The notes under the pieces: model-generated | What the model was told of the DNA's origin: nothing | Databases searched by the model: none | The model's input: only the letters and a program-made list of their open reading frames with translations | IMG/VR virus record: IMGVR_UViG_3300022843_000013 | Span: 1-64,000 of that record | DNA from: a virus | Length of the DNA stretch: 64,000 nt | Direction: 5' to 3' (one strand) | In this document: one piece after another, positions 2,858 to 52,408 of the stretch | Position numbering within the stretch: the stretch's first letter is position 1 | Layout of the letters: each line of letters opens with the position of its first letter | Position numbers and translations under genes: made by a program

Positions 2858-2912
2858 TTACGTCTAGGTTTGTTTTGTAAGCGGGGCGATCCCCACTCCT
2901 TCAGCTGGTAAT

Positions 2913-3422: not shown

Positions 3423-3453
3423 TGTTTTTTATTTTTGTTTTTGTGATCCCCTA

Positions 3454-4165: not shown

Positions 4166-4198
4166 GAAACAGGGCGACCTAGCGGGACGCCCTGTTTC
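4166..4198. terminator. Stem-loop, probable terminator
   Basis: GAAACAGGGCG...CGCCCTGTTTC inverted repeat downstream of the exonuclease gene. Confidence 0.55.
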
Positions 4199-4219
4199 TC
4201 GTCGAATTGCTAAGTCCCG

Positions 4220-4855: not shown

Positions 4856-4875
4856 GACTGGTCGACGTTATTGAT

Positions 4876-12974: not shown

Positions 12975-14945
12975 TTACTTTCCGTAAATGTGTTCTACGA
13001 ATGGTCTGATGTTCGATTCTTGACTATACCAGGCGAGACCTAGCGCCCTAGCTAGTCCGTGTGTGACGGAGTTTCCGATCGCCTTTGTGATCTCCGTCTT
13101 GTTCTTTCCGGCCCACTTCATATCGACCGGGAACCCCATTGCTTTTTGAAGCTCCACATTAGTCAGCATGCGGTAGAAAAGGTCTATCCTGATAAGCCTC
13201 CCGTCGAGTTCTATAGCTGGGTAGACCAGGGCGTGCCCAGCCTTGGTTCGGCACGTCGGGAGCGGACGGTCGATGTCGGATCCTTCCGATCCCGAAGAAT
13301 AGTAAACGTAGATGTAGGGCTTAGCATCCACGCGTCCGGTCTTGTGCAACTCCGCAATTAGGAACCTCAGGAAAGTGGACGCCCTTGAAATGTCCACCCC
13401 CTTGTGGGTGCAAGCCTTCATAAACCGATCGCGGAGTTCATCAAGTTCGAGCTCAATGCACGAAGCGTTCGCTTTCGTTACAAGCGTGCGCACAGGCGAG
13501 TCAACTCCGTAGCGCCCATGATTTTTACCTCCTCCCGTTTGATCGATAGCCATCATAAACGCCTCGGCGAGGGCCTGGTGGCTTCCTGAAGACGTTACGG
13601 TGGGTATCGGCTCACTAACTGGCTTGGCCACTCCAGTCCCTCGCAGATGGTCAACCAGGGGCTGCATGACGTAATGCGCCGGGTTCGACGTCACCGCGGT
13701 GAGAGGTCCGTCAACACTCTGCGCCGTCGACGCACCTTTTAGCTGTATGACAGCGGGTTCTACGAGCACCTCGTGGGATTTTGTAGTGAGTGTTTGCAGG
13801 GGCATATGGACGCTGCGAGTGTAGTCAACCTGGTGGCCGGCGTCCTTCGGAAGGATGTAGGCCTCAGGGGCCGCCAGCCCTCCAGCTCCATGAGAAGTTA
13901 CCGTAGGTAGAGGCGCCTCTAGCGAATGCGTGCGAGGCTGCTGCGTGGGGCGCTCACCGAAGTTAGGCGACAGAAACTCCTTGAGCCCATACTTGACTAA
14001 CCCGATCGCAAGGCGTCGGAACGTATTGTCGGCTAAGGGACGCTTCCTCGTAAATACGCTCTGACCTCGGTGCGACCAGTCAATGACGTGGTCACGCGCG
14101 CTAGGCCACGCCCACACCTTACCGGGGACTTCCCCGCCTTTGTCGTGCGTAGGGTCTGGCCAGACGGCGGTCTTTCCGCAGGCGTCTCGGACGGCCTGCA
14201 CAAACAAACGTCTTCGGATTGTCGGGTCGCCGTAGTCGCACGATCGGAGGATGCGCCACTCCAGCGTGTATCCCTTTTCTGTGAGGGCAGACACCCACGC
14301 GGAGAAGTATTCCCCCGCGCGGCTTTTATCGGGGACCATGTAGGGCGCATACCCTAAGCCCTCCATACGGGAAGACCAGGAGGCTTCCGCCTCTCTAGGA
14401 GTCCGGCGACGGGCGTGTCCTTTTGGGAGGAGCCGAACCGGCTTGCTACTTTTAGCCCACATCAGCTCCCCCTTACCGCGGCGGACTTTCCGACGCTTCT
14501 GTAATGTAGGTCCCCACGAGAGCCACTCGGGGACGTTCTCTACGATAAGGCAATCTGGACGCACGTGGTCGACCCAGTCTAAAACGGAGTGGCCGTGCGA
14601 GCGCTCCTGCTCAGAGACGCAGGCAGCCCCCTTAGCTACGCTGAAATGCTGGCAGCTAGGAGACGCCCACATCAGAGAGCACCCGGGGGACGGTGGCGAC
14701 ACAGACTTCGGGTCCAGCTTGAAAAGGTCCTCGCGCATGTGCCTGTGCTCCGGGTGATTCGCGGTGTGGATGTCGATCGCGGCGTCCCAATGGTTCACGA
14801 ACGTCCCGGCGACGTCCCTATTCAGGATTTTGTTAGCCTCTAGGAGGCCGCCACCGGAGCCGCCCGCTCCACAAAATAAATCCACAAGCGTGTCAGGAAC
14901 GCCACTCCTTGGTTGGTCTAGTAATACTAAATTATCCGGAATCAT
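12975..14945 (-). CDS. C5-cytosine DNA methyltransferase with repeated internal modules
   Basis: Motif I DLFCGAGG, IV SPSCQHFS, VI ENV, VIII PTIRRR, IX RMLT..ELQKAMGF, X IGNSV. Confidence 0.93.
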   Translation of the reverse strand: MIPDNLVLLDQPRSGVPDTLVDLFCGAGGSGGGLLEANKILNRDVAGTFVNHWDAAIDIHTANHPEHRHMREDLFKLDPKSVSPPSPGCSLMWASPSCQHFSVAKGAACVSEQERSHGHSVLDWVDHVRPDCLIVENVPEWLSWGPTLQKRRKVRRGKGELMWAKSSKPVRLLPKGHARRRTPREAEASWSSRMEGLGYAPYMVPDKSRAGEYFSAWVSALTEKGYTLEWRILRSCDYGDPTIRRRLFVQAVRDACGKTAVWPDPTHDKGGEVPGKVWAWPSARDHVIDWSHRGQSVFTRKRPLADNTFRRLAIGLVKYGLKEFLSPNFGERPTQQPRTHSLEAPLPTVTSHGAGGLAAPEAYILPKDAGHQVDYTRSVHMPLQTLTTKSHEVLVEPAVIQLKGASTAQSVDGPLTAVTSNPAHYVMQPLVDHLRGTGVAKPVSEPIPTVTSSGSHQALAEAFMMAIDQTGGGKNHGRYGVDSPVRTLVTKANASCIELELDELRDRFMKACTHKGVDISRASTFLRFLIAELHKTGRVDAKPYIYVYYSSGSEGSDIDRPLPTCRTKAGHALVYPAIELDGRLIRIDLFYRMLTNVELQKAMGFPVDMKWAGKNKTEITKAIGNSVTHGLARALGLAWYSQESNIRPFVEHIYGK

Positions 14946-36376: not shown

Positions 36377-36724
36377 CTACAGTCCCCCGTCAGAGTCGGG
36401 GACAATCTGCTCCATAATTGAGAGCAATAGATTCTCGGAAATCACTCCGTCTCGATACGCCTCGGAAATCTTAGCGTCCCCGACGATTATGCAATCTGAC
36501 TTCTGATCTGGCATCACCATTAATGGGAGCCCGAGCAGAGTTGAAATAACTGGTGATGTTTCGGTTGTTGTTATTGATTCATATCTCACGACATTCATCG
36601 CTGAAGAACTTAAGAAGTAAATTCCTTTACGTTGGGGGATGTCGGCGATTTTTTGAATCATGTCCGAAATGATATTCGGAGTAAGTGCGTCACAAGGAGA
36701 TGAATCCAATTTTGTTTTACTCAT
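36377..36724 (-). CDS. Hypothetical protein starting inside attC-1
   Basis: AT-rich ORF; ATGA overlap at 36721-36724. Confidence 0.55.
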   Translation of the reverse strand: MSKTKLDSSPCDALTPNIISDMIQKIADIPQRKGIYFLSSSAMNVVRYESITTTETSPVISTLLGLPLMVMPDQKSDCIIVGDAKISEAYRDGVISENLLLSIMEQIVPDSDGGL

Positions 36725-36766
36725 GGTTTATTTTTATCTTTCGGTGGCAGGATGGAGGAGTTCTCT
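36686..36766 (+). mobile_element. attC-1 (degenerate integron attC-like site)
   Basis: Left GCGTCAC-AAGGAGATGAATCC (AAC decayed to CAC); right GGATGGAGGA-GTTCTCT. Confidence 0.55.
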
Positions 36767-37005
36767 CTAAGATTCCAGAAGTGCCCCGCTCCTTGTTCAT
36801 TGGTTTCTAAGGTGCAGTGGCATTTCGTGCATCCAACGATGCAACTGGTGCGACGGTTTCCCAAGCGTTCAATTTTTGCCTCCCCACCGCAAAACGGACA
36901 CGGCAGGAGAGAACAAGACGATGCAAAACAATCGCCAAGGCAAACGCTATGTGATCCACACGCGGAGGGTGTGGGGCAGTCTTTATGTGGATCGAAGTCA
37001 CTCAT
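36721..37005 (-). CDS. Lar-like (restriction alleviation) Zn-ribbon protein
   Basis: LLPCPFCGGEA...VGCTKC...WNxR; starts inside attC-2 and stops inside attC-1. Confidence 0.75.
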   Translation of the reverse strand: MSDFDPHKDCPTPSACGSHSVCLGDCFASSCSLLPCPFCGGEAKIERLGNRRTSCIVGCTKCHCTLETNEQGAGHFWNLRENSSILPPKDKNKP

Positions 37006-37032
37006 GGCGATGTTTGATCTTGGTTGTTCATC
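36908..37032 (+). mobile_element. attC-2
   Basis: AGAGAAC-AAGA...CAAAACAATCGCCA / TGGCGATGTTTGA-TCTT..GTTCATC; inner GATCCAC/GTGGATC stem; two unpaired bases in the left arm. Confidence 0.85.
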
Positions 37033-37535
37033 AAAGATGGCCAGTTGTCGGGATTCACAGCAGCCCACCAGATTACTTCTTCGGGGCACACGCCGGAATC
37101 GTCAAACGTGCCATCAAGTAGATTCAGGACCGAGTAGTGTTCATCGCATGACGTATCGACGAGGATTGTTTTCTCTCCGTCGCTGTATTTTACGATTACT
37201 AAGATCCTTTCGCCGTCGCCCCAGAAGTAGCTTTCAGAATCGAAGTCTTCGTGCGCTGGTCCTTTACGCCATTCAAGCGGCTTCCTATCTGCTTCGATTG
37301 CAACGCTTTTCTCTTCATTCCTAGAATTGAGGAGCGCGGCTACCATAGTCGAGAAATGTGACCCTAAAAAGTCAGCTTGAATCTCTTCTCCATTCTCTCC
37401 CATGGTAAACGAGAGAAAGCCGGGAATGTGCCCCGTGTCTGTGCAGTGGTCAGTCCAAGCGTCTTGGAGTGCCTCAGATAAGTCATCCTCGTCAATGAAG
37501 AGATCGCTTGATGTAGTCGTGGTTTTCATGTTCAT
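37002..37535 (-). CDS. Acidic hypothetical protein ending inside attC-2
   Basis: Stop overlaps the Lar-like ATG inside the attC. Confidence 0.6.
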   Translation of the reverse strand: MNMKTTTTSSDLFIDEDDLSEALQDAWTDHCTDTGHIPGFLSFTMGENGEEIQADFLGSHFSTMVAALLNSRNEEKSVAIEADRKPLEWRKGPAHEDFDSESYFWGDGERILVIVKYSDGEKTILVDTSCDEHYSVLNLLDGTFDDSGVCPEEVIWWAAVNPDNWPSLMNNQDQTSP

Positions 37536-37589
37536 GATTTGTTAATTTTTTCGATAAAGTCAATTTGTAATTCTTCAGGCTCGCGCTTA

Positions 37590-37907
37590 TTAATCAGCGT
37601 GGAATATAGCAGATGCCAAGCATTGATTGGGGTGAATTCTTCCCTCATGGTCCAGCTCCCGCATCGGTGGGGTTGGGCTGACTTTGAGCGTCTCTACGGC
37701 GTAATGGATCTGGCACCCCGCTATGAACATGGATCCGATTTGAACATACCAATTTGTTGACCCGCGGTTAGTTTTTATTCCGAGGGTTTGCTCATCAGAC
37801 ATGACCGCTTTTATGGTTCCAAATACGGCTCGGTAGCTTTCCCCGTCGGGGGCGATAAACCATTCGTCTGTGGTTATTAGATATTTTTTTCCTATAGTCG
37901 GTTTCAT
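37590..37907 (-). CDS. Conserved hypothetical phage protein
   Basis: MKPTIGKKYLITTDEWFIAPDG..YRAVFG...IAGCQIHYA. Confidence 0.65.
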   Translation of the reverse strand: MKPTIGKKYLITTDEWFIAPDGESYRAVFGTIKAVMSDEQTLGIKTNRGSTNWYVQIGSMFIAGCQIHYAVETLKVSPTPPMRELDHEGRIHPNQCLASAIFHAD

Positions 37908-37950
37908 TTCACCAGCAATGCCCGGCCAAGTCAATGGTCCGGGCGGGTTG
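37904..37950 (-). repeat. Hairpin leader repeat, copy 2
   Basis: On the - strand CCCGCCCGGACCATTGACTTGGCCGGGCATTGCTGGTGAA-ATG. Confidence 0.8.
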
Positions 37951-37966
37951 GTGGTGTTTCCTTAAA

Positions 37967-38176
37967 TTAAGTCATGACGTTAGGGTCAATTCCATCTACC
38001 CAAAAGGTTCTCGCTTTAGATACCTGGGAAAACCCGACACACATCAGGATTGAAAAAACCTCTCCTTCATGAGCTGAAGCTAATCGTTCAGCCTCGATCC
38101 GAGCACTAATAATCGTTTGGTGGCGGACTTGTGGCGATGTCCCCCCTTCGCGCAAGACGTAGTAATATGTTGTCAT
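37967..38176 (-). CDS. Small conserved phage protein
   Basis: P.VRH....A..EAERLA..H.G..F motif; start MTTYYY directly after repeat copy 3. Confidence 0.65.
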   Translation of the reverse strand: MTTYYYVLREGGTSPQVRHQTIISARIEAERLASAHEGEVFSILMCVGFSQVSKARTFWVDGIDPNVMT

Positions 38177-38218
38177 TTCGCCAGCAATGCCCGTCCAATT
38201 CAATGGTCCGGGCGGTTG
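38173..38218 (-). repeat. Hairpin leader repeat, copy 3
   Basis: On the - strand CCGCCCGGACCATTGAATTGGACGGGCATTGCTGGCGAA-ATG. Confidence 0.8.
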
Positions 38219-38243
38219 TAACTGTCCGACGCTACGGACCCTC

Positions 38244-38726
38244 TTAGGGCCGAAGGTCAGGGGAGTTCGCATCAGAAACAACGACCTCCGCCTTGAGTAG
38301 CTCGACCGTGTTCCTGAATGCGCGCTCCAACATCTCTGGCGTCATCTCCAAATCATAGACGCTACCGCTCCGCGCCATCCCTGCCATCACGCAGTCCGAT
38401 ATGTATTCGATCACGTCGAGAAGATTCACATCCTCTGGCACTCCGTCCTCTTGTCCGAGATGGTGTCGGTGAATCTTTCTATGATTGTCCCACCATCCAG
38501 TTTTCTCGAATCCTGTGATGAAGTCATCATGGAACCAGTCGATTGCCGTTAGCTTGTCGTAGTCGTGCTCCCCAGCGGCCTCGGTGAGTTTGCCGATGAA
38601 GAACGCCATGGCTTTTACTACGTCGCCGATATGGGTGCGACTGGAAGCTAAAAGCGTTTCCTTGGTGGTGTTGGCGTAGTCGCAGGTCCGTGTGTCTGCG
38701 GTGGCGGATTTGGTTATTGGTATCAT
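38244..38726 (-). CDS. DUF5662-like HD-type protein
   Basis: HI..V, HDxDK, H...HRHH, LLDVIEYISD..MAG..R; start MIPITK at 38726; ends in attC-3. Confidence 0.65.
   Translation of the reverse strand: MIPITKSATADTRTCDYANTTKETLLASSRTHIGDVVKAMAFFIGKLTEAAGEHDYDKLTAIDWFHDDFITGFEKTGWWDNHRKIHRHHLGQEDGVPEDVNLLDVIEYISDCVMAGMARSGSVYDLEMTPEMLERAFRNTVELLKAEVVVSDANSPDLRP
38248..38272 (+). mobile_element. attC-3 (right half only)
   Basis: GGTCAGGGGA-GTTCGCAT; this core is the exact complement of the attC-4 left core. Confidence 0.6.
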
Positions 38727-38750
38727 AAAGGGTTTAGGTAATTCGGAAGA

Positions 38751-38852
38751 ATGCGAACAAGTCGGCGCTGGCAACAGATGCCAGCGGTGAAGTTTGGTTA
38801 GGAATCGGAGTCGGCTCCCGCTGGTAGCGGTGCCACACCTTGGACGTTCTCC
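38751..38852 (+). mobile_element. attC-4
   Basis: ATGCGAAC-AAG..TGGCAAC..CCAGCGG / CCGCTGG..GTGCCA..CTT..GTTCTCC. Confidence 0.85.
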
Positions 38853-38866
38853 ATAGAAATAACACA

Positions 38867-39163
38867 ATGAAAACCACCCAAGAAGTCTACGACGCCCTCG
38901 TGGCATACATGAACAAGTTCACCGAACCAGCGAGTTCCTGGTATGCAGGAATTGCAGCCGATCCACGGGACAGATTGTTCAGCGATCATAATGTTAATGA
39001 AACGAATGGTCAGTGGGCGTTCGATACATGCTCAACAGACACTGACGCCAGAGCTGTCGAGGCCGCCATGTTGAAGCTCGGCTGCAAGGGCGGCGGCGGT
39101 GGCGGCGACCACACGACCAAGAGTTGTTATGTCTATTTTATCACCAACTCGACCGTCGAGTGA
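38867..39163 (+). CDS. Cassette gene, 98 aa, possible GIY-YIG-like fold (copy 1)
   Basis: ATG about 20 nt after the attC GTT, in normal cassette orientation; WYAGIAADPRDRL..H...ARAVE motif. Confidence 0.75.
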   Translation: MKTTQEVYDALVAYMNKFTEPASSWYAGIAADPRDRLFSDHNVNETNGQWAFDTCSTDTDARAVEAAMLKLGCKGGGGGGDHTTKSCYVYFITNSTVE

Positions 39164-39334
39164 TGGGCACGGAAACTCATGCGGGTGATTTTCGGCTGAC
39201 ATGACCTCGCCTGTCTCGACATCCACTGTCTCGATCCGAACAGATATTCTAGTTTTAATATTCATTTTGTTTTTAGCGGTCTTGCATTCCGAACTCACCA
39301 CTCAAAGGCAGGTGACGCCTAAGAAAATTAAGAA

Positions 39335-39463
39335 GGAGAACAAGACGGTGGTGGACAACCGCCACCAGCCCCACTGTTTACATGATCCTGCGTAGCCACA
39401 ACCTCAACCCTGTTTTCGGAGTCGGCTCCCGCTGGTAGCGGTGCCACACCTTGGACGTTCTCC
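39335..39463 (+). mobile_element. attC-5
   Basis: GGAGAAC-AAG..TGGACAACCGCCACCAGC / GCTGGTAGCGGTGCCA..CTT..GTTCTCC. Confidence 0.85.
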
Positions 39464-39477
39464 ATAGAAATAACACA

Positions 39478-39774
39478 ATGAAAACCACCCAAGAAGTCTA
39501 CGACGCCCTCGTGGCATACATGAACAAGTTCACCGAACCAGCGAGTTCCTGGTATGCAGGAATTGCAGCCGATCCACGGGACAGATTGTTCAGCGATCAT
39601 AATGTTAATGAAACGAATGGTCAGTGGGCGTTCGATACATGCTCAACAGACACTGACGCCAGAGCTGTCGAGGCCGCCATGTTGAAGCTCGGCTGCAAGG
39701 GCGGCGGCGGTGGCGGCGACCACACGACCAAGAGTTGTTATGTCTATTTTATCACCAACTCGACCGTCGAGTGA
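39478..39774 (+). CDS. Cassette gene, identical copy 2
   Basis: Identical to 38867..39163. Confidence 0.75.
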   Translation: MKTTQEVYDALVAYMNKFTEPASSWYAGIAADPRDRLFSDHNVNETNGQWAFDTCSTDTDARAVEAAMLKLGCKGGGGGGDHTTKSCYVYFITNSTVE

Positions 39775-39938
39775 TGGGCACGGAAACTCATGCGGGTGAT
39801 TTTCGGCTGACATGACCTCGCCTGTCTCGACATCCACTGTCTCGATCCGAACAGATATTCTAGTTTTAATATTCATTTTGTTTTTAGCGGTCTTGCATTC
39901 CGAACTCACCACTCAAAGGCAGGTGACGCCTAAGAAAA

Positions 39939-40334
39939 TTAAGAAGGAGAACAAGACGGTGGTGGACAACCGCCACCAGCCCCACTGTTTACATGATCCT
40001 GCGTAGCCACAACCTCAACCCTGTTTTCGGAGTCGGCTCCCGCTGGTAGCGGTGCCACACCTTGGACGTTCTCTGGGGAAAATAAAAGACCTGACATCAA
40101 GACCGGAACGTGACCGTTGCCCGAAAATAGCGTCGAGTCCCCGGGTGCGTAATCATCAAACCAAACGCACAGACCGCGCTCGGGGTGATCATATATCTCT
40201 ATTGGTTGCTCGCCGTCGTAATCCCTGCCGTCAGCGTTCGAAACTGTCCAGAAACCAGAGAACAAGGCATCGCTGCCAATGACTACCGCGTCGGAGTTAT
40301 TGGCGATTTCGGAGTTATTTTGCGCGGTATTCAT
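39939..40334 (-). CDS. Hypothetical protein starting in attC-7 and reading through attC-6
   Basis: MNTAQNNSE start at 40334; the C-terminal ENVQGVAPLPAGA...PPPSCSPS is the antisense translation of attC-6. Confidence 0.5.
   Translation of the reverse strand: MNTAQNNSEIANNSDAVVIGSDALFSGFWTVSNADGRDYDGEQPIEIYDHPERGLCVWFDDYAPGDSTLFSGNGHVPVLMSGLLFSPENVQGVAPLPAGADSENRVEVVATQDHVNSGAGGGCPPPSCSPS
39946..40076 (+). mobile_element. attC-6
   Basis: Same as attC-5 up to GTTCTC, then diverges (GTTCTCTGG). Confidence 0.85.
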
Positions 40335-40356
40335 GGTAGGATTTAAGCGTTCGCGC
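40255..40356 (+). mobile_element. attC-7
   Basis: CCAGAGAAC-AAG..CTGCCAATGACTACCGCG / CGCGGTATTCATGGTAG...GTTCGCGC; one unpaired base in the L box. Confidence 0.85.
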
Positions 40357-40587
40357 TTAGAACCAGCGCCAGTTTTGAGGCATCGTTTGCCATTCAAATC
40401 TCATTTGCTTTGCCGCACAACCGCTTGGCCGGTATGCTGGGTCTTTTGCGTAAACTGGGTGGGGTTTAATCGCCAGCCTCCTCACTAAAAGCCAACGGAC
40501 GGAGCGAACAAGGCGATGATGATACGCCCTTAATCGTTGGAACTTTTGGGGCGTGGCGGTAGTTGGTGGTGATTCTTGCGTGTTCAT
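40357..40587 (-). CDS. Small hypothetical protein starting in the attC-8 remnant
   Basis: ATGA overlap with the recQ stop. Confidence 0.45.
   Translation of the reverse strand: MNTQESPPTTATPQKFQRLRAYHHRLVRSVRWLLVRRLAIKPHPVYAKDPAYRPSGCAAKQMRFEWQTMPQNWRWF
40502..40553 (+). mobile_element. attC-8 (left half only)
   Basis: GAGCGAAC-AAGGCGATGATGATACGCC; core complements the attC-7 right core at 7/8 positions. Confidence 0.55.
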
Positions 40588-42302
40588 CGATTCAAGTGTT
40601 GTTCCAGAAACGTGTGCTTCATGTCGTCTGACTGGTTCGCGTAAGTCAAAACCAGCTGCAGATCGGCCTCGGCGGACCTAGCCTTGTCGTCGAGCCGTCG
40701 GAATGCCTCCGCCGGGATGTCATCGGGTGACAGGCCCAGCCTGAGGGGCTTTGAAGTCGACGGCCTAACCCACTCGATCTTACCGTCGCTGCTCATCTTA
40801 CGCAGATGGCCGGCTACCGTCTGGGGCGCCCGACTGAGTTGCTCGGCCAGCTCGTCCAAGTTTATCTGAACCCACCCGTCATCCCCTTCCAATCCGATAT
40901 CATAAATGGCGTCTCGCGCTTTCTTGTCCGTAGGAGTGAGGGACGGAATGTTCTCAGCGAAACGGACGCGTGACTTGCGTGCGGCACTCTCGTCATTAAT
41001 GAACATGCGTTCGCCGTGGCAGAAAGCCATTATCGACTGCACCGCGAATGTATCGACGCCAGCTTGTCGGGCTATGTCGTCACGCTTCGCCGTAATAATA
41101 CCGCTGGATCCCTCGCGCATACTCTTGGCTGCGGCCCAGAATTTCCGTATGTCTTCCTGGGACGGACTACCGCATCGGATGAAGTGTCGCTGCGTGCGAA
41201 CGCCCTCCTTGGTCGGAATAATCGTGCAGAAAGAATCCGCACCGTCCCGACCTGCGCGCCCGAACTCTTGCGTGTAAGCCACTAGCGTCCCTGGTATGTC
41301 GAAGTGGACTACGGACCTAATGTCGCCCTTGTCTACGCCCATACCGAAGGCGCACGTGGCTACGATGATAGCGTCCGGAGACGCCATGAACTTGTCCTGC
41401 TGGTAAGTTCGATCTTTCGTGGACATCTTTCCGTGGTAGAACAGGATGTCCCGATCTGTGTAAGACTGCAGGGTGGACGCGTAGAGCTCCACGCGCTTTG
41501 TAGTGGACGCGTAAACAATCGTCGCCCCCGGGCAGTTCTCAAGCAACCATTGATACTGGTCGGATTGATTTTCGGTGAATAGGGACGACAGGTGCAGGTT
41601 AGTCCGTCTCGGGTAGTGGTAGATTAACTCCGCCCCCTCGATACCAAGACCGGCTCGGCATTCAGCCTCAGCGTCGGACGAGAGCGTAGCTGAGAAAGCT
41701 GCGACAACTTTGGGAGCGACGTCCTGAATCATGAGGCCCGCGGACTTATAGCCGGGACGGAAGGTGTCGGCCCAGTCCGCGAATGTGTGGCACTCGTCGA
41801 GGGCTACGAAATCAGGAGGATACTGTCGCACCACGTTAGCCCACTCCGGGTTGGCGAATCGCTCCGGGGAGACGAGCATAAACTGCAGGTCGCCCGCCGC
41901 CCAATCCCGGAGGACCGAAGCGTTGTGCCCGTCAGTCTCGGCGCTGGATATCGTCGCAGCGGCCAGTCCTTTGCGCTGCATCGAGGTTGACTGATCCCTC
42001 ATCAGGGCGATAAGCGGGTATATGATGATAGTCTTCCACCCCATGCACAACGTGGGGACCACGAAGCATGCGGACTTACCTAAGGAAGTCGGCAGTATCA
42101 CCACGGAATCTCGGCCCGTCATGATGGATTTGACCGCGCGGTCCTGACCTGGTCGGAGGCTTTCGAACCCGAGTTGATTCAGGACGTAGGGCATCTTCTT
42201 CATACCCTCTGCATATGCTTTCACTTGACCCATGGTAGCGACTTCTTTTCTAGATTCGATCTTGATGTCTTTCGACGATGTTTTTTTTACAGCTGGTGGC
42301 AT
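40584..42302 (-). CDS. recQ: RecQ-family helicase
   Basis: LRPGQ, PTSLGKS, SPER, DECH...W...FRP, SAT, ATCAFGMGVDK.DIR, QEFGRAGRDG. Confidence 0.93.
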   Translation of the reverse strand: MPPAVKKTSSKDIKIESRKEVATMGQVKAYAEGMKKMPYVLNQLGFESLRPGQDRAVKSIMTGRDSVVILPTSLGKSACFVVPTLCMGWKTIIIYPLIALMRDQSTSMQRKGLAAATISSAETDGHNASVLRDWAAGDLQFMLVSPERFANPEWANVVRQYPPDFVALDECHTFADWADTFRPGYKSAGLMIQDVAPKVVAAFSATLSSDAEAECRAGLGIEGAELIYHYPRRTNLHLSSLFTENQSDQYQWLLENCPGATIVYASTTKRVELYASTLQSYTDRDILFYHGKMSTKDRTYQQDKFMASPDAIIVATCAFGMGVDKGDIRSVVHFDIPGTLVAYTQEFGRAGRDGADSFCTIIPTKEGVRTQRHFIRCGSPSQEDIRKFWAAAKSMREGSSGIITAKRDDIARQAGVDTFAVQSIMAFCHGERMFINDESAARKSRVRFAENIPSLTPTDKKARDAIYDIGLEGDDGWVQINLDELAEQLSRAPQTVAGHLRKMSSDGKIEWVRPSTSKPLRLGLSPDDIPAEAFRRLDDKARSAEADLQLVLTYANQSDDMKHTFLEQHLNR

Positions 42303-42766
42303 GATGATAATTGGACTGCGGTTACGACGCTAGTTCTTCCGTCTTCGGTGACTACGGTGTGGAATATCCCGCGTATGGGGAGATTCCACACCGACCTGAT
42401 GAACGGTGTGTCTCGTTGGCTCGAAGCGGCAACGAGCCATATGGCGTCTTTGCCGCTTCGCTGCGTGTCTTTTACGACCCACACTTCCCCGGACGAGCAC
42501 AGCATCTCGTCAACGAACTCGGAAACCATTCCCGGCTTAGAGTTCATGATGCTGTTGGCGACATCCACTTCCCAGGCATACAGGCCGACAACTTCGGACA
42601 CGAGCATACTTTGATACGGGGGAATTCCGTCCATTTCTGAGTAGCGCTCGCATACTTCTTCAACGGTCTCTAGAGGGGACACGCCGAGTATGGAGGCTAG
42701 AGTGCGGGCTACTCCGGTTCCGGAGGCCTTCACTACCTTGGGTGTTATTTTCTTACGTGGTGGCAT
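42287..42766 (-). CDS. Hypothetical protein
   Basis: Overlap-coupled ORF. Confidence 0.6.
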   Translation of the reverse strand: MPPRKKITPKVVKASGTGVARTLASILGVSPLETVEEVCERYSEMDGIPPYQSMLVSEVVGLYAWEVDVANSIMNSKPGMVSEFVDEMLCSSGEVWVVKDTQRSGKDAIWLVAASSQRDTPFIRSVWNLPIRGIFHTVVTEDGRTSVVTAVQLSSCHQL

Positions 42767-44403
42767 TACTGTATTGTTGGTGGCTTCTCCTCTGCCTCTC
42801 CCTGCTCGTCTGCGGTCGCCTCAACTAGCCCCTCGACCATACCGGCAATCTCGTCGAGATCGTCGTCATCTTCATCCGGTGGCTTTTCCTCGTCTACCGG
42901 CTCCTCGTAGCCTTCAATGCCGAGCGCTGCACCGACGAATTCCAACTCGTTCGGGTTTGCGTATAGAGCGGCGTACAACGCCTCGTCGGTGACGGCTACG
43001 CATCCAAGCACGTCGCACGTGTAGCGGGGACCTGCGGACATGTTGGCGGTGTTGACGGTCGTCCCGAGAAGTCCGCGCTTGACCATAAACGAGGCAAACC
43101 CGGGGGCGTAGGACAACGGGCGCCCGTAGGTTTCCTTGGTGTCTTCGTATTTGTCATAGTAAAGCGCGAAGTCGCACTGTCGGAGCTTTGCCCCGTAGCT
43201 ATTCTTGATCATCGTCAGGCGGACGTTCTGCCCGTATGTGAGTTTATCTCCTGACTTTTCCTTAATGTCCCCGACGCCCATCAGCGTGAACCTGTAGGCG
43301 CAGAACTGACGGAACGCCCGCCCGCCGATGCGCGTGTCGTTTTTAGTCTCGGAAGGTGTCATGAATGAAGGTAGGGATTTCTTCATATCGACGCGCTCGT
43401 TCTGGTGGTTTACGTAGATCATGACGCAGTTATACTCATCCATGAACTCTCCCATCTCTCGCTTAGTGACCTGAGCGTGTTTTGAGTGCCCCATATTGGA
43501 CCCAGAGAGGGCGTCTTTCGGCGCCTCTTTCTTAGCGTTCGCCGGTAAGCCCCAGCTTGATCGACCCACGGCCTCCGCGGAAGACTTAAGGCTGGACCAA
43601 GGGTCGACCACCACGAATATGGGGTTGCCCTTCGTCTCCGGGTTCTCGTCGCATCTCTTGCGAAGCTCGGGAACGGTTTGCTTGATCGTGTTGTCACACT
43701 CGACAAGCTGTCGGGCGCTGGAGAACTCGATAGTATTCAGGAGAAGCGCGGCCGTCTTCTTGTTTTTGTGCAGGATCCTGGAGATGTGCTCCGGCTTCAT
43801 CTGTTTGTTCTCGCACTCGATATAGAGGGAGTAGCAGCCCATCATGGACGCCCTCCCCAAGAAGTCGAATATCCATGTGGTCTTCCCTACGGAGTCTGGG
43901 GCTACCATCTCGATGGCGGTAGGCGTGCGCAGACCGATGCATCCGATGACGTTCTGCATGCCGATCTCCTCGAACGGAAAAAGTGTCTTACGTAGCATTG
44001 AGGGCGTGTATAAGCGGACGGGCCGCTTGGCGGACCTCTCGTTCAAGATGTCCATCGTTTTGTTCACGTTCTCCGCCATGCTGTGCAGAACTTTTCCTTG
44101 GTTATCGGACGTTATGCGACGCTTGATGGTTTGATTCTTGGAACTCAAAAGGTCGGGTTTGTAGGACGGTCTTTTCTTGGCTGCCTTTTTGGCTGCCTTT
44201 TTAGCGACCTTCTTGGCTGCGACCTTTTTAGCGGCTTTCTTAGCGGCTTTCTTGGCGGGCACCCTCTTGGCTACCTTATCGTTGGCTGTCTTATCGTTGG
44301 CTGCCTTAATGGTTTCGTATATCTTCAATGAGATTTCCGCTGATGTGGCGGTGGTTTTATTTTCCTCCGGCTCCTTTTCTGAAGTCTTTTCGTTTTCGTT
44401 CAT
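42766..44403 (-). CDS. RecA/UvsX-like recombinase with a histone-like N-terminal extension
   Basis: Walker A PDSVGKTT, YIECE, Walker B VVVD, YVNH, GGRAF, KNSYG; KKAAKK repeats. Confidence 0.85.
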   Translation of the reverse strand: MNENEKTSEKEPEENKTTATSAEISLKIYETIKAANDKTANDKVAKRVPAKKAAKKAAKKVAAKKVAKKAAKKAAKKRPSYKPDLLSSKNQTIKRRITSDNQGKVLHSMAENVNKTMDILNERSAKRPVRLYTPSMLRKTLFPFEEIGMQNVIGCIGLRTPTAIEMVAPDSVGKTTWIFDFLGRASMMGCYSLYIECENKQMKPEHISRILHKNKKTAALLLNTIEFSSARQLVECDNTIKQTVPELRKRCDENPETKGNPIFVVVDPWSSLKSSAEAVGRSSWGLPANAKKEAPKDALSGSNMGHSKHAQVTKREMGEFMDEYNCVMIYVNHQNERVDMKKSLPSFMTPSETKNDTRIGGRAFRQFCAYRFTLMGVGDIKEKSGDKLTYGQNVRLTMIKNSYGAKLRQCDFALYYDKYEDTKETYGRPLSYAPGFASFMVKRGLLGTTVNTANMSAGPRYTCDVLGCVAVTDEALYAALYANPNELEFVGAALGIEGYEEPVDEEKPPDEDDDDLDEIAGMVEGLVEATADEQGEAEEKPPTIQ

Positions 44404-47612: not shown

Positions 47613-49295
47613 CTACCTTCCGGCGAACATCGTGATGTCCGCGCAGTTCTCCAGCATGTTGTGCTTAGCCGACGCCGGGCGGTAATCCCGGGACTCGAGT
47701 TCTTTCTTCTCTGCGCCCTTTGGTGGGGTGGACCATTTGTAGACGATGTCCGTGTCGATGGAGAACTTCAATAGCCGCCCATCGTAGTCCCACGTGTTGT
47801 GATCGCACATGTAAACCTGGTGCAGCCTGGCTACTAGAAAGCGCTCTTCCGGCGGGCACATCGTAACCACAGAGTCATACAGGCACGTCATGCCGCGCGC
47901 TTGTAGACCAAGACGCCGGTAAGCCTCCCCCAGCATGCGGCAGGCCCTAGCGGCGGTAGCTCCAACTGACTCCTGCAAAGGGTAGTTACGGAGCTCGCGA
48001 CCCATCGACGACTCTAGTGAGTTTCTCACCCTCCAGTTAACACCAGACCCAGCGCTATGCGTGAGGCAGTGGCGTATGCGTCCCGACTTCGCACGATACA
48101 TTCCGTGCGTCTTAGGTATGGCTGCCATCTCTTGCATGAACTCCGTAGCCCTAGGCTGCCGGGCCTCAATCATGTCGAGCCCCTTATCGCCAGTTCCTGG
48201 TTCAGGTTTGATGCCCGTGTCGGACTCGATCTTTCTTTCGATAGACCCGGCCGACGCGCCGTAAGCGGCGCTGTTCGAAACAAGAACTCCGGAACACGTA
48301 AACCTGTGTCGCGGTCCAGCATCTAGGATATCATACGTTTGCGCTTTCCCGCAGATGAACGCGCGACACGCCGCGTCAAGGTCTCCGCGCCCGACAACCT
48401 GCGCCTTTTTGGAATTTCTGGAAACATCGGGCAAGATGCTGAGCGGGCCAGCGGACCTGACAAGCGTAAGCGATCTGGCGCAAGCCTCTTCTAGCCTGCA
48501 CTTACCGATTTCTTCCGTCCAGACTTCGTGCAGCCTTGTTGCTCGAAGTCCTTGATACTTGATGATTTCTTTGACTCCTGTATTGACGACGCCCCCATGA
48601 CTTACCCACTCGACGCCGTCCCATAACAGATCGTCAAGAGAGACCGACTGCAAAGCTACGACGCCACGGTCGCGGGTCAGGACTTCAGAGTCCTCCGCGA
48701 CGCAAAACCCAATAGCCTTGGCCCCGGTCCTCTGCACCTTCTCGTTCATCATCTCGCGACCTTTATCGAAAGTCGCTTCGGCAAGAGACCAGTGGGTGTC
48801 ATACTTGGCTTTCTTCAGATTGCCAAGTGAGTCGCGAGCCAGCATGTCTTCAGTGACAGGTCCCAGCTTCTCCCCGTCTTTCCAGACGTTCATGATGAAG
48901 TCTGGGTCCCGCGCCTCGACGGGAACGGGAGACTTTTCAGAAAACCCCACGCGTACCGACGACGCGCCGTAAGGGTTGTCGCTGTTCAGGTAAGCCCAGT
49001 CCGGGTCAGGCTCATACAGGATGCGCATCAAATCCGCGTCACCAGATATGATAGCGAGCGCGAAGCTCTCCGCAGCGCTGTAGTCGCTCTCCACAAAGAC
49101 CATACCATCCGGTGCCGTAACAACGGACCGTATAGAAGGTAAATCCTCAGGATCTTTATCCACCCATTGTAGTAGGTCTTCTGGGAGGTCACCCTCCTCG
49201 TGTGCTTCTTTTATAACTGCTCCTATAGACTTTGATATTCTCTTGTTTACATATGCGGGCCAGTTCAGCGTGTTAGGCATCCATGACCGGGTTCT
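47613..49295 (-). CDS. Family A DNA polymerase, exon 2 (intein-containing)
   Basis: RTRSWMPNTLN, motif A SDYSAAE, motif B R..AKAIGF|SAAYG, NYPLQES, motif C LYDS. Confidence 0.92.
   Translation of the reverse strand, partial: RTRSWMPNTLNWPAYVNKRISKSIGAVIKEAHEEGDLPEDLLQWVDKDPEDLPSIRSVVTAPDGMVFVESDYSAAESFALAIISGDADLMRILYEPDPDWAYLNSDNPYGASSVRVGFSEKSPVPVEARDPDFIMNVWKDGEKLGPVTEDMLARDSLGNLKKAKYDTHWSLAEATFDKGREMMNEKVQRTGAKAIGFCVAEDSEVLTRDRGVVALQSVSLDDLLWDGVEWVSHGGVVNTGVKEIIKYQGLRATRLHEVWTEEIGKCRLEEACARSLTLVRSAGPLSILPDVSRNSKKAQVVGRGDLDAACRAFICGKAQTYDILDAGPRHRFTCSGVLVSNSAAYGASAGSIERKIESDTGIKPEPGTGDKGLDMIEARQPRATEFMQEMAAIPKTHGMYRAKSGRIRHCLTHSAGSGVNWRVRNSLESSMGRELRNYPLQESVGATAARACRMLGEAYRRLGLQARGMTCLYDSVVTMCPPEERFLVARLHQVYMCDHNTWDYDGRLLKFSIDTDIVYKWSTPPKGAEKKELESRDYRPASAKHNMLENCADITMFAGR
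48273..48704 (-). mobile_element. Mini-intein (144 aa) in PolA motif B
   Basis: Begins CVAEDSEVLT, block B ATRLH, block F TYDI, ends VLVSN followed by Ser. Confidence 0.9.
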
Positions 49296-49984
49296 CGTTG
49301 TGTTCAGCCTAGCTCGTTAAGCTAAGCCCGCCACGTTTGGTGACAGCTGCAGTTTATTTATTATGTCTGCAGACCAGACTATATCATGACCCGACGCGTG
49401 CCGGGTCCCTACTATTTCGAACCACTTGGTTCTACTCCCTTTCGGGATAGTCGTTGCACGTTCCGCCATGCGGCGGCTTCGCTCAGGATTGCCTTCGAAA
49501 AGGGTTCCCCTGAATTAAATAGGTTTGCTTTAATCATTACTGATTAAAGGGGCGAGTTTTAGACAAACTAATTCGCGGACCTCGGCAAAGGTGGCGCGAT
49601 AACGGATTCGGATAAGTTTTAAGCCGTTCTCCTTGGCGTATTCATTCTTTCTTCGGTCGTGCTCTTTCAAGTTCTTAGTGTCGAAGTATGTGTCAGGTCC
49701 TTCTTGGTAATGCTGCTCCCCGTCTGCCTCTACCAAGGTTTGACAACCTGCGATGTAGAAGTCGTAGCGTAGAGGTAGGCGCTCGGACGCGCCTAGCAGT
49801 CCTCTAAGTTTAGGTTATTCACCTTACCCCGCTCTGCGGGCGTGCACACCCCGCAATAGCGCTTCTGCCGCATGACAGCGGCACTTACTTCTGTGAATGT
49901 GTTGCCGCACATCTCACAATCTTTCTCTAATACTTCCATTACAGCACCCTAAGCGGATGCTTTTGTTTGTCTACGAAAATTTTC
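49296..49984 (-). ncRNA. Group I self-splicing intron (about 689 nt) in the DNA polymerase gene
   Basis: P AAUUCAGGGGAA, Q AAUCCUGAGC, R GCAACGACUA, S AUGAUAUAGUCU; exon 1 ends in U and the intron ends in G; splicing restores TTETG|RTRSWMPN. Confidence 0.92.
49530..49939 (-). pseudogene. Degenerate intron-encoded homing endonuclease (Zn ribbon plus Vsr/DUF559-like domain)
   Basis: MEVLEKDCEMC...CGVC in one frame stops after 48 aa; LRYDFYI...LVEADGEQH...D..KNEYA..NGLKLIRI lies in another frame. Confidence 0.75.
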
Positions 49985-52408
49985 ACCCGTTTCCGTTGTT
50001 GATAGCTGACCGTGTATCCTGCCGTCACTGGCAAGCCACGAGTGCAGTCCGTGCTCCTCTGTTGTCGTATCTCCCGTCTCCGGGTCCTCGTGGCTCGACG
50101 CCTCCTTCAGGAAGGCCTTAGCGATGTTACCGACGGCGTTGAGGTCCAGCAGTTGATCCAGCGCCGACAACTGCTCCGATAGGATCGACAGCGTCTGCTT
50201 GTCTACCGCGGGGGTGTAGACCTTCTGACGTTCTGGGGGAAGCTCCAGCACCTTGTCCCACGCCATACTTGGCAGGCCCGCCGCTTTCTGGTTCGTCGAC
50301 TTGATGGGTTCGAGACCTTCGACGGTAAACAACCACCTGCGCATCTGGTCCGGACTTCGGATGTTGAACTTCTGAGAGTCCACGAAATGCCGCAGCAAAG
50401 ACAACCAACTGGACATACCTTTGGAGTCTCCCCCTGCGAACAGGAGCTCCTTTACTTTCTGAGCGATGGCATTCTCATCTTTTCTGGTGATGTCTCCCTT
50501 CATGTTCTGCAGCGCCTTGAAGCCCAACTCTCGAACAATGCGGTTCTGTAGCTTGTTGGCGGCCTCCTCGTGGATTCGCCTCTGTAGTTTGACCTCAAGC
50601 TTATCTCTTGCGAAGGCAAACAGAACCCTCAGGTCGTCCAGCATGGGGACGTCCACTGGTAGACCCAGCATCGTGAAGTCTGTGAAGACGTCAGTCACGA
50701 ACGGGTTAAACAGGTTCACGTAGTAGTCCCATAGCGTTTGCGCCTCTAGTTGGCGCCTGATAAGCGGGTAGGCCCGAAGGGGGGCGATGACGTCCCGAGC
50801 CCCGTAAGGGTGCAGGATCGCGCTAGGGACGAAGCCGTAGCCGCCTTTTACGAGGTCTTTGTTCTTACGCTTCCACATCACGAGCGCTTGATCATACCGA
50901 CCGAGGGTCGTGTATTTCATCCCGATGCCGCGCTCTAACCCTAACTCGCTCGATTCGTCACACGTCTGCTGGGCGAACTCGGTGTCCATCTCGCAGCGCT
51001 GATACACCGTGATGCCTAGCTTGTGATGCATCCACGGGGAGTCGGCAGCGTAGTGGTGCCCGATGTACTTGGCGTTGATACGAGAGAGCATGTCCGCGAG
51101 AGGAGCCCCTACAGCCTTGTAAGCTTTGGCCTCTACCTCGTGGCGACTCTCGTTTCTCCCTCGAACCGCGCGCACTAGAGCGTCCGTGCGCGACATGGCA
51201 CGCCGGACGTGCTCGGCGGGAGAACAGTCATCGGCGTTTTCCGAGTGCTTGTCTATCATACGACTGAAAAAGTCACCCGTCTCCAGAAGCTGAGGTGCCG
51301 GCGTTTCTCTAGTCCAACTATGCTCGTCTCGTCTCACCCACCCCTCCTCGCCCTCCGGAGGGTCGCCGTCGGCCCAATTCTCGATTATCGCTTTCGAGAT
51401 TGAAGGTTCGACATTTTTAGGAAAGGGAGGTGACAGGTCCGGCGGTAGATCCGGCGGCGCGTCCGGGTGGTCGAAGCTCCACTCGTTCTTCTCGTTACGG
51501 AACTCAATTACGACCGCGTCCCTTTCAGACCAGGCGAACTGTATTGTTCGCAGCTGCCCGTCGATGTGCGTGCGGCCGTGCCACTCGCAGTCAACGGCGA
51601 GCAGAGGGCAGCCATCGTCCGACCTTATACCGGGCCACTCGTCGGCACCCTGGGACTCGGGGCAACCGTTGGCAAGGTCCTCGATGCGCGCGATCCAGTC
51701 CTCGAGGTCTTGCTCGTTACGCAGGACCTCGTAGTTGACCTGGTCGTTTGGTATGACTCCGGTCCTCAGGATGTCTACGCGCCGAGCAATCTCCTTAAAG
51801 TCCACCCGGAACGTCTCGTAGAAGTCTGGCTTAGTGACCAGCGTGAACGGCGCGTGCATCAAATAGACGTGCGCTTGATGGTCTTCGGACCAGAACCAGC
51901 AACCGTGACCGTCTTTGAATCCGATCTTTTGATCCGACACCATGTCGTAAGCCGGCTTGCCCATGCAGACGATAATCTTCGGCTTAACGCGTCGGATTTC
52001 GTCCTCTAGGACGGGGAGGCCCCACTTCAGTATCTTGGTGGCTGGCTTTGCTCTCCTGGCCTTAGGGAGGAGCCACTTGCACACGGCAGTGAAGTAGCAC
52101 GTGTCCATGTCAATCCCGGCGCGTAAGGCTACGTCCCGGATAAGCCCGGTGGACCCTTTCAAGTATTCCGCCGGCTGGTTAATGCGAAACCCGAATTTGG
52201 TCTCGGCTTGATTAGTCGCTTCGTCGTCCTCCACGGAGGCCGTCACGAACATGACGTCGTATTGCTCCTGCCCCAATACGGGGGACCGACCGGCGACGTA
52301 AAACACGTCATCGATGTGGCGGCTTACCTTCAGTGTCTTCGGGGGCGCACCGTCGTCATACGGGGGTTCGACTTCGTCCTGCGCGAACCCCCTTCGTCTG
52401 TCGCTCAT
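49985..52408 (-). CDS. Family A DNA polymerase, exon 1: UDG-like domain, 3'-5' exonuclease and thumb
   Basis: YFTAVCK..P....LEDEIRRVKPKIIVCMGK.A (family-4 UDG-like); ExoI DCE, ExoII HHYAAD, ExoIII YGARD; DGRIH....T.TG. Confidence 0.92.

Follow-up and report, generated by a model that had tools for sequence, protein, structure and literature searches.

Integrase-less clusters of attC sites (CALINs) are already known from virulent phages, and their sites are functional for IntI1 (Qi et al. 2023, Front Microbiol, PMC9892861). In these phage arrays, small cassettes are delimited by at least two attC-like sites of one orientation, IntI is absent from the vicinity, several ORFs or mixed orientations occur in some cases, and a role of the cargo in countering host restriction is plausible. 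Insertion by IntI at non-att genomic 5'-GWT-3' sites (attG), which places a cassette at a plain GTT in or beside a gene and keeps the hairpin, has been documented in E. coli with IntI1, IntI2, and IntI3 (bioRxiv 10.1101/2022.09.11.507474). Elements of the IS91 family (IS91, IS801, IS1294) are bounded on either side by GTTC, carry imperfect palindromes at their ends, occur as head-to-tail copies, and leave the target unduplicated; they use a 5'-GTTC/CTTG target beside oriIS palindromes, with GTTC cleavage at terIS (PMC13181058). The sedentary chromosomal integrons of Verrucomicrobiota adjoin IntI and attI and have 55- to 90-nt sites with sense cargo. In the promoter-stem-loop cassettes of T4-type phages, repeats flank small accessory genes in a plastic region and are exchanged by homologous recombination between conserved repeats, with co-directional promoters and no rule of core complementarity.

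The DNA analyzed here (the window, 64,000 nt) comes from a large uncultured salt-lake phage with a genome of at least 160 kb, of which the 77.76-kb record that we searched represents about 42%. Six small mobile units, bounded like bacterial integron cassettes, lie in two clusters (36760-37025 and 38265-40581) between RNAP-side genes and recQ, and the insertion target of both clusters is a resident GGA|GTTCATC (Table 1). The region is probably a pair of clusters of integron-type gene cassettes without an integrase in view, i.e., a CALIN inserted in the accessory region of a phage. It shares with the published phage CALINs the co-oriented sites, the small cassettes, the lack of a nearby IntI, and the plausibly antirestriction cargo, and differs from them in having six units in two clusters, GTTC/GTTG cores like those of Verrucomicrobiota integrons, population variants that break at G|TT, and cargo that is mostly antisense and translated through the sites; the array described here is known from sequence alone.

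Table 1. Units, hairpins, and genes of the cassette region (R'', inverse core; R', right core; z, folding relative to shuffled sequence).
Feature	Coordinates	Strand	Details
Unit 1	36760-37025	+	266 bp; single insertion in 3' end of resident 177-aa gene at GGA|GTTCATC
Unit 1 cores	36760-36767 (left); 36907-36914 (R'')	+	GTTCTCTC; GAGAGAAC; 8 bp complementarity
Hairpin A1	36907-37032	+	R'' GAGAGAAC, R' GTTCATC; z -1.9
Lar-like restriction-alleviation ORF	36721-37005	-	Antisense to unit 1
Resident phage DNA	37026-38264	-	177-aa gene, phrog_22562 gene, small gene
phrog_22562 gene	37590-37934	-	PHROG match; resident
Small resident gene	37967-38281	-	Within/over end of resident stretch
Unit 3	38265-38845	+	581 bp; left core GTTCGCAT 38265, R'' ATGCGAAC 38751-38758; 8 bp complementarity
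Hairpin A3	38751-38852	+	z -3.0
160-aa gene of unit 3	38244-38726	-	Antisense to site
Unit 4	38846-39456	+	611 bp; left core GTTCTCC 38846, R'' GGAGAAC 39335; 7 bp complementarity
98-aa gene of unit 4	38867-39163	+	Sense; begins 21 nt after GTTCTCC
Hairpin A4	39335-39463	+	129 nt
Unit 5	39457-40067	+	Exact tandem copy of unit 4; cores 39457 / 39946
Unit 5 gene	39478-39774	+	Copy of unit 4 part
Hairpin A5	39946-40076	+	Copy of unit 4 part
Unit 6	40068-40348	+	281 bp; left core GTTCTCTGG, R'' CCAGAGAAC 40255-40263; 9 bp complementarity
Hairpin A6	40255-40356	+	Folds as long imperfect hairpin
Unit 7	40349-40581	+	233 bp, cargo doubtful; left core GTTCGCGC 40349, R'' GAGCGAAC 40502-40509; 7/8 complementarity
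Hairpin A7	R'' 40502-40509; R' 40536 or 40582	+	R' GTTGGAA (40536) or resident GTTCATCG (40582); weak, z -0.4 and -1.0
RecQ-like helicase gene	40584-42302	-	Resident; Pfam DEAD and Helicase_C

The boundaries of the units follow a rule that is specific to each unit: its first bases are the reverse complement of the core opening its own 3' hairpin, over 8, 8, 7, 9, and 7 of 8 bp in units 1, 3, 4/5, 6, and 7, respectively. The core pairs on which the sequence-only reading had based this pattern are all present where it had placed them. The attC-type form, comprising an inverse core ending in AAC, an imperfect hairpin, and a core starting with GTT, is present in A1, A3, A4, A5, and A6 and is weak in A7, and each right end has the sequence (A/G)C|GTTC. 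Across the record, the motif GAACAAG occurs eight times on the plus strand, always within 36911-40506, and six of these copies form the left feet of all six hairpins. When 7-mer cores are considered by themselves, a chain test gives only weak significance (a chain of 5 is reached in 3 of 200 shuffles). The strength of the cassette reading comes from the 8- to 9-bp matches, the common GAACAAG foot, and a natural variant of the phage.

The folding of these hairpins is of modest stability. Folding is somewhat stronger than in shuffled sequences for A1, A3, A4/A5, and A6 (z from -1.6 to -3.0) but not for A7 (z -0.4). Both A4 and A6 form long imperfect hairpins with a paired R box, unpaired spacers of 3 to 6 nt, and, in the 5' arm of the plus strand, two or three bulges of one base each; the bulged bases differ from the classical G and T. 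In A1, A3, and A7, competing local hairpins form. Site A3 may consist of a complete but short site (38751-38798, with R' GTTTGGT; z -3.7) joined to a 47-nt right half that is common to A4 and A5 and thus occurs three times in the array. Rfam holds no attC family, and a surrogate covariance model (R1) was built from 14 bacterial attCs. Four of its top eight matches in the window (E values of 0.2 to 4.5) fall in the array, all on the plus strand, including exactly A4, weakly, as well as 38752-38798 (the best) and 40503-40542, but because R1 also misses most true attCs of a bacterial integron (that of genome G146), these scores are uninformative rather than negative.

The sequence-only reading had described eight elements in one array. 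Six co-oriented hairpins stand, and the remaining two elements, a "degenerate" one left of 38265 and a left "half" before 36760, are resident phage DNA; the latter (36700-36767) does not fold (z +1.0). Excision of unit 1 in silico restores a resident 182-aa ORF ending in LMNSSILPPKDKNKP, whose stop overlaps the ATG of the next gene (ATGA), and the locus therefore comprises six units in two clusters. The interval between the clusters, formerly taken for a 1,239-bp cassette, contains resident phage genes and no R'' complementary to GTTCATC, and its phrog_22562 gene and small gene are each preceded by a conserved 43-nt motif (repeat D9). The second cluster was inserted at a GTTC overlapping the recQ stop codon, within the resident GTTCATCG at 40582.

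Of the five distinct cargos, four run antisense to the sites, an unusual arrangement for integrons, and most of the expressed cargo has this orientation because phage transcription here is on the opposite strand. It includes a Lar-like antirestriction protein and a 160-aa phage-type protein, whose frames run through the hairpins. The Lar-like ORF (Pfam PF14354, E = 2.7e-7; phrog_599; TIGR03655 below its cut-off) has its Lar domain, residues 33 to 80, filling the body of unit 1, with the N-terminal 32 residues derived from hairpin A1 and the C-terminal tail from resident DNA. The 160-aa frame is a real coding gene, since the five differences among variant contigs, which lie at 38370-38400, all affect third positions of its codons. 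Its product matches DUF5662 weakly (Pfam E = 0.0089, below the cut-off) and belongs to a phage-type family: the only homologue found in the Verrucomicrobiota phylum, 49% identical, lies in a phage-like operon with no site beside it. Unit 4 is the most canonical cassette of the array. Its 98-aa protein belongs to a widespread family, one member of which occupies a canonical cassette of a bacterial MAG (L005), with GTTCGAT...ATCGAAC and a 60-nt attC. Units 4 and 5 are 100% identical (repeat D1/D2), and in three runs the contig depth over unit 5 is about double that of its flanks, an observation that is no more than supportive.

The earlier expectation that unit boundaries in related phages would fall at GTT is borne out by a sister variant, JGI metagenome contig L039, in which positions 1930-5035 match 40066-43171 of the window at 100% over 3,106 bp, including an identical recQ gene. 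Directly left of AC|GTTCTCTGG the two are unrelated, making the left boundary of unit 6 the break-point; exchange of cassettes at G|TT is seen at this one junction. Several other variant junctions (38758, 40260, and 40263) lie on the inverse-core side, where IntI is not expected to cut, and loose contig ends occur at 40066, 40260, and 40263. The array is not a chimera, because several independent assemblies link the units to both the RNAP-side genes and recQ. A search of IMG/VR found no related phage array.

The cores had been singled out as GTTC-type, unlike the proteobacterial form, and this is the normal core type of genuine Verrucomicrobiota integrons. Three genomes of the phylum (G002, G003, and G146) encode IntI at 335 to 391 bits (cut-off, 265), and their arrays obey the core rule of the phage array (GTTCGCC/GGCGAAC and GTTCGAT/ATCGAAC), with left arms of GAAC-AAGGCC and right ends of GAC|GTTC; in one (G002, locus L037) the rule was verified in 10 consecutive cassettes. 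Together with a fourth integron, that of G065 (locus L066), these integrons (loci L029 and L067 in G003 and G146) share with the phage array the boundary rule, the core type, an AAC-[AC]A[GT] left foot, AC|GTT right ends, and IS91-type units in cassette positions. In contrast to these integrons, the phage sites are longer (93 to 129 nt), lack IntI and attI, and form an array that faces against transcription. The sequence-only reading had found no integrase in the window, and the 77.76-kb record, about 42% of the genome, likewise yields no match to TIGR02249 or PF00589, i.e., to IntI or a tyrosine recombinase; nor does this record contain a complete integron with an IntI carrying its specific extra domain, an attI, and a Pc promoter adjoining the array.

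The footprint had been attributed to IntI, and although the cassette logic is real, the same grammar fits IS91-family elements, one of which lies in the variant array. The units could be non-autonomous cargo of an IS91-family rolling-circle transposon, with the hairpins as oriIS-like ends and the Y2 HUH transposase of some phage variants acting in trans; GTTC would then be target and termination tetranucleotide, and new units would land head-to-tail before an existing GTTC. We regard this as unlikely, yet it is a live rival because the replacement units of L039 encode a full transposase (Y2_Tnp, 171 bits; NF033538, 318 bits) of a family that uses GTTC next to terminal hairpins. That array also holds a decayed second copy and has the same boundary grammar (GTTGGAC...GTCCAAC plus a hairpin ending TTAAC|GTT). 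In the window, GTTC/CTTG abuts terminal palindromic ends, as shown by the right ends of the units, and both resident insertion sites are plain GTTC inside or ending genes. Moreover, the arms of A1 resemble those of the hairpin that ends the IS91-type unit of L039 (AACAAGACGATGC ... GATCTT), and CAAGRCGATG...GATCTT, present in A1 and A7, recurs at the ends of transposase units in L039 and G146, a likeness that, with the modest stability of the hairpins (z -0.4 to -3.0), counts against the integron reading. Multicopy IS91-type elements in two bacterial genomes (G059 and G065) show the cassette geometry as well: the left end is GTTGAAC, and its complement GTTCAAC lies about 50 to 70 nt in from the right end, with hairpins after it. 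Against rolling-circle transposition, the cores are unit specific and the left ends share only GTTC, with no conserved terminal repeat for one transposase; the passenger units have no palindrome beside the left GTTC and hence no conserved terIS, and no Y2 HUH transposase was found in the window or the 77.76-kb record. The same grammar occurs in G002 with IntI and 11 cassettes but no transposase of the L039 kind. Finally, the transposase clade is itself integron associated: IntI, present in 90 of 301 sampled genomes of the phylum, occurs in 16 of 20 carriers versus 74 of 281 others (Fisher p = 2e-6), and the transposase sits in cassette positions beside IntI in four genomes (G146, G065, G059, and G267). 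Because its clade is tied to integrons, a transposase in the variant array is expected in a true cassette array.

The prevalence of antisense cargo and the phage-operon homologue of the 160-aa protein, which weigh against integron cassettes, would also suit a phage-specific cassette-swapping system that is only integron-like, in which some other recombinase, encoded in the remaining phage half, acts on GAAC...GTTC hairpins and exchanges phage-type accessory genes among related phages. Most cargo is phage type and co-directional with phage genes, population junctions lie on both sides of the bodies, and the two resident targets share GGA|GTTCATC, beyond what GTT requires. Such a system is nonetheless improbable, as the record contains no candidate recombinase, the site grammar is common to real bacterial integrons, the family of the 98-aa cargo is represented in an attC cassette of a bacterium, and no related phage array appears in IMG/VR. 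It is very improbable that the hairpins are ordinary intergenic regulatory repeats shuffled by homologous recombination, of the kind seen in the hyperplastic regions of T4-type phages: on the transcribed (minus) strand the left arms form terminator-like hairpins that have T-rich tails and exceed expectation (13 versus 4.6 expected), and recombination at the 47-nt repeat explains the 611-bp duplication, but unit-specific complementarity of 7 to 9 bp is not expected, promoter-like sites are not enriched (5 versus 4.2 expected), with no co-directional promoter plus stem-loop, the hairpins are for the most part covered by reading frames (three different frames), and the L039 break-point shares only AC-GTTCTCTGG leftward, with no common repeat arm.

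On the integron-type reading, each unit has its cargo body first and an attC-like imperfect hairpin after it, and strands would be exchanged at G|TT, so that the first 7 to 9 bases of a unit complement the inverse core opening its own hairpin. An integron integrase, from the host or the remaining part of the phage, would first have placed a cassette at each of the two resident GGA|GTTCATC sites. These first insertions, unit 1 and the first unit behind recQ, would resemble those published for IntI at attG, apart from the longer sequence shared by the phage targets. Cassettes may later have been added or replaced at the hairpins by the same integrase, and the 611-bp tandem copy would need only unequal homologous crossing-over between identical 47-nt hairpin halves. 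Bacteria of the Verrucomicrobiota phylum are plausible hosts of this phage, and its array is a clean new member of the phage-borne integrase-less attC clusters already known (Qi et al. 2023, PMC9892861).

Units 1 and 3 to 7 of the array each begin with a core whose inverse lies at the foot of the attC-like hairpin that closes the unit (A1 and A3 to A7), and every core cited in the sequence-only reading, which described an integron cassette array of eight attC-like elements, was found in place. On balance, these units probably represent an integrase-less cluster of Verrucomicrobiota-type integron cassettes that entered a large phage at two GTT sites and is exchanged in the population at G^TT (caret, junction) by an integrase that is out of view. 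Two identical copies of the 611-bp unit stand in tandem, and the 47-nt right half of its hairpin is present a third time.

Coordinates of the array and of other features in the window (+, top strand)
Feature	Position (strand)	Remark
Unit 1	36760-37025	closed by A1
Resident genes	37026-38264 (-)	three genes
Unit 3	38265-38845	closed by A3
Units 4 and 5	38846-40067	tandem 611-bp copies, closed by A4 and A5
Unit 6	40068-40348	closed by A6
Unit 7	40349-40581	closed by A7
Covariance-model hits with exactly predicted ends	39335-39463 and 39946-40074 (+)	
Terminator-like left arms	36917-36936, 39344-39367 and 39955-39978 (-)	A1, A4 and A5
98-aa gene	38867-39163 (+)	units 4/5
Putative 80-aa ORF (MNIKTRISV...)	39032-39274, copy 39643-39885 (-)	units 4 and 5
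Unit-6 ORF	39939-40334 (-)	
43-nt motif	37904-37946 and 38173-38215	copies 93% identical; hairpin GCCCGG...CCGGGC
Unoccupied GGAGTTCATC	13433-13442 (+)	inside 656-aa ORF 12975-14945
Group I intron match	49357-49575 (-)	Rfam, 57.6 bits, above gathering score; between long minus-strand ORFs 47613-49280 and 49949-52408

The units form two clusters within resident phage DNA. When unit 1 is deleted in silico, a 177-aa gene gains a tail ending in LMNSSILPPKDKNKP and a stop codon that overlaps the ATG of the next gene as ATGA, an arrangement typical of this operon, indicating that the 266 bp of unit 1 were inserted precisely at a GTTC within the terminal part of a resident gene. A search for an "empty-site" allele of the 177-aa protein returned the interrupted form only. 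The second cluster, units 3 to 7, lies at a GTTC overlapping the recQ stop codon. The two resident targets are both GGA^GTTCATC, and a single unoccupied copy of GGAGTTCATC, the sequence common to the two insertion sites, is present in the window.

Other elements proposed from sequence did not hold as sites or cassettes. The "half" to the left of 36760 does not fold (z = +1.0) and has no inverse core; the "degenerate" element to the left of 38265 also has none, and the 43-nt motif there also precedes the neighboring resident gene. The supposed 1239-bp unit comprises three ordinary phage genes on the minus strand, of which one matches a PHROG, and it lacks an inverse core for its GTTCATC. The 43-nt motif has only two copies in the window, each immediately before the start codon of one of two neighboring small resident genes, and probably serves the phage as a regulatory element. 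Also rejected was the idea that "empty" hairpins had been inserted around resident genes, as each body would need its own 7- to 9-bp terminal inverted repeat.

The + strand of the entire record has eight copies of the motif GAACAAG, all within 36911-40506, and six of the eight are hairpin left feet. Folding gives long imperfect hairpins for A4/A5 and A6, in which a paired R box is flanked on both sides by 3 to 6 unpaired bases and the + strand 5' arm carries two or three single-base bulges. The fold is less clean for A1 and A3 and nearly absent for A7 (z-scores: A1, -1.9; A3, -3.0; A4, -1.6; A6, -2.3; A7, -0.4). A surrogate attC covariance model, trained solely on 14 bacterial sites, placed four of its eight best window hits in the array, all on the + strand (E just 0.2 to 4.5) and two of them with exactly the predicted ends. 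This model is too family-specific, missing most true sites of the integron in the Verrucomicrobiota genome G146, and therefore neither supports nor refutes membership. On a broader site alignment, no RNAalifold consensus was found, the stems lying in different registers. A minus-strand orientation of the sites was rejected: the AAC-AAG and AC-GTT feet, the bulge asymmetry, the model hits, and the break point in a sister phage contig all fit the + strand as top. Terminator-like sites number 13 in 4.4 kb, versus 4.6 expected; among them, on the transcribed strand, are the left arms of A1, A4, and A5, with CTTGTTC-rich tails behind them.

The same organization is found in bacterial integrons of the phylum Verrucomicrobiota, in which the integron integrase IntI is encoded by 90 of 301 sampled genomes. 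The 98-aa protein has its two closest bacterial homologues (73 to 74% identity) in Verrucomicrobiota MAGs, where the gene lies outside cassettes, and both MAGs encode IntI well above the curated cutoff. An array adjoining IntI in genome G002 contains eleven attC sites with GTTC- or GTTG-type cores, left feet of GAAC-AAGGCC or CAAC-CAG, and right ends of GAC^GTT or AAC^GTT, and the start of each cassette complements its own inverse core; G003 and G146 follow this pattern. Hence, GTTC cores, correctly described at the outset as differing from the proteobacterial GTTRRRY, are not odd but normal for this phylum. In another MAG, a 98-aa homologue occupies a canonical cassette (GTTCGAT, gene, ATCGAAC, 60-nt attC hairpin with a bulged A, GTTAGGT).

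Near-identical DNA occurs in 24 salt-lake metagenome runs, and contigs from four salt-lake runs diverge from the window at 38758, 39959, 40066, 40260, 40263, and 40297, all at or beside cores. Divergence at 39107/39718 and 38338 is inside genes and looks like that of diverged homologues. Stretches without contig cover were left out of the evidence, and the loose-end sequences of variant contigs were not found elsewhere in the 77.8-kb record. One JGI metagenome contig from a sister variant, L039, shares with the window, at 100% identity, a stretch of 3,106 bp that starts at 40066 and continues past units 6 and 7 and recQ; to the left of AC^GTTCTCTGG, it is unrelated to the window. Thus, its break falls at GTT, where unit boundaries in a related phage had been predicted to lie. 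Misassembly of host DNA, named beforehand as one of the refuting outcomes, was not borne out, since independent assemblies join the array to phage genes. A single IntI exchange does not account for the junctions that lie on the inverse-core side.

The part replaced in L039 consists of two units with a grammar identical to that of the window (GTTGGAC ... GTCCAAC-AAGAC-hairpin-TTAAC^GTT). A full Y2 transposase of the IS91 family (Y2_Tnp, 171 bits; NF033538, 318 bits) is encoded by the first, and the second is a decayed relative, with ends 82 to 85% identical. Such a unit favors an IS91-type rolling-circle mechanism, which we consider unlikely but worth serious weight. IS91-family elements insert beside 5'-GTTC/CTTG with the palindromic oriIS end against the target, and several cut at GTTC at the opposite end (PMC13181058). 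Multicopy relatives in genomes G059 and G065 have a left end of GTTGAAC, its complement 50 to 70 nt inside the right end, and then hairpins, showing that the geometry of the cassette rule is not exclusive to integrons; moreover, short motifs from the ends of transposase units recur in A1 and A7. As the sole explanation, however, this mechanism conflicts with the unit-specific cores, with passenger units that have no left-end palindrome, and with G002, in which the same grammar accompanies IntI without such a transposase. In addition, the transposase clade of this phylum is itself bound to integrons. IntI is present in 16 of the 20 genomes carrying the clade versus 74 of 281 others (P = 2e-6), transposase copies adjoin IntI in G065, G059, G146, and G267, and in G146 they occupy cassette positions, including the first after attI. 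Integron-resident transposase units (loci L067 of G146, L066 of G065, and L060-L062 of G059) stand at cassette positions and are bounded by AC^GTT. Each of the three transposase copies in G059 has, ~0.5 kb away, a match to the N-terminal part of IntI (model positions 3-180, 112 to 115 bits), which apparently belongs to the 2.55-kb repeated element.

A further reading, also unlikely, is that the IS91-family HUH transposase of some variants, a rolling-circle enzyme, and not IntI, mobilizes the units among the phages by way of their attC-like hairpins. A unit-specific guide, xxxxGAAC, at the hairpin foot would pair with the unit's own left end, GTTCxxxx, and integron cassettes and IS91-type elements would have one common end structure, mobilizable by either enzyme; if true, phages would have integrase-independent cassette shuffling. 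A look-alike system specific to the phage is improbable, and plain regulatory repeats are highly improbable. A chain test on 7-mer cores alone was weak, with 3 of 200 shuffles matching the observed chain length; the basis of the case for cassettes is the longer core matches, the common foot, and the comparative data, not this test.

The window is the first 64 kb of a 77,760-bp record, estimated to be ~42% complete, and contigs of up to 160 kb are the source of recorded proteins identical to two window genes. A close relative was not found in the isolated-phage collection, nor were relatives found in IMG/VR scans with RecQ, the 98-aa protein, the transposase, and three exact DNA patterns. The array region is an accessory stretch of lower GC content (45 to 54%), flanked by RNA-polymerase-like genes and a RecQ-like helicase at ~57 to 58%.

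Nearly all genes are on the minus strand, and minus-strand reading frames pass through the hairpins, with ATGA overlaps. A Lar-like domain (Pfam, E = 2.7e-7) occupies exactly the body of unit 1, the N-terminal 32 residues being hairpin encoded. The 160-aa ORF of unit 3 is a genuine gene; in a diverged copy (two runs), all five differences fall at its third codon positions. Its product has a single homologue among 401 genomes of the phylum, encoded in an operon that is phage-like and translationally coupled and contains no site. Three different frames read through the GAACAAG foot, which is thus a signal at the DNA level. The unit-6 ORF has one C-terminal tail in the window and another in L039 (1899-2261, minus strand), showing that such tails are incidental read-through; the hairpin next after the unit supplies the tail, and an exchange of cassettes therefore alters protein ends. 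The sole cargo gene in the sense of the sites encodes the 98-aa protein and starts 21 nt past GTTCTCC. This family of small proteins is widespread in many bacterial phyla, with invariant WYAGIA, RLF, H, GGG, and Y.Y, and the viral members in its alignment are only two loci, both distant. A homologue in locus L004 adjoins what read as type I restriction-modification genes, neighbors that hint at a role in defense or counter-defense. The putative 80-aa ORF converges on the 98-aa gene, overlapping it by ~130 nt, and has no family match. PADLOC and NCBIfam gave no match for the uncharacterized cargos.

Integrase-less attC clusters in virulent phages, with sites that work with IntI1, were published in 2023 (PMC9892861). 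Insertion by IntI at non-att GWT sites is documented; here there are two resident GTT targets. Three traits are unusual: cargo predicted to be translated antisense to the sites, longer target sites common to both insertions, and the presence in the array of an IS91-type unit, which connects two single-strand-hairpin mobile systems. If the units are true cassettes, they would extend phage-borne attC clusters to a poorly studied bacterial phylum and provide in situ evidence, from two coexisting variants that differ exactly at the recombination point, that a large lytic-type phage trades accessory genes, including a predicted anti-restriction gene, via the integron cassette pool of its hosts.
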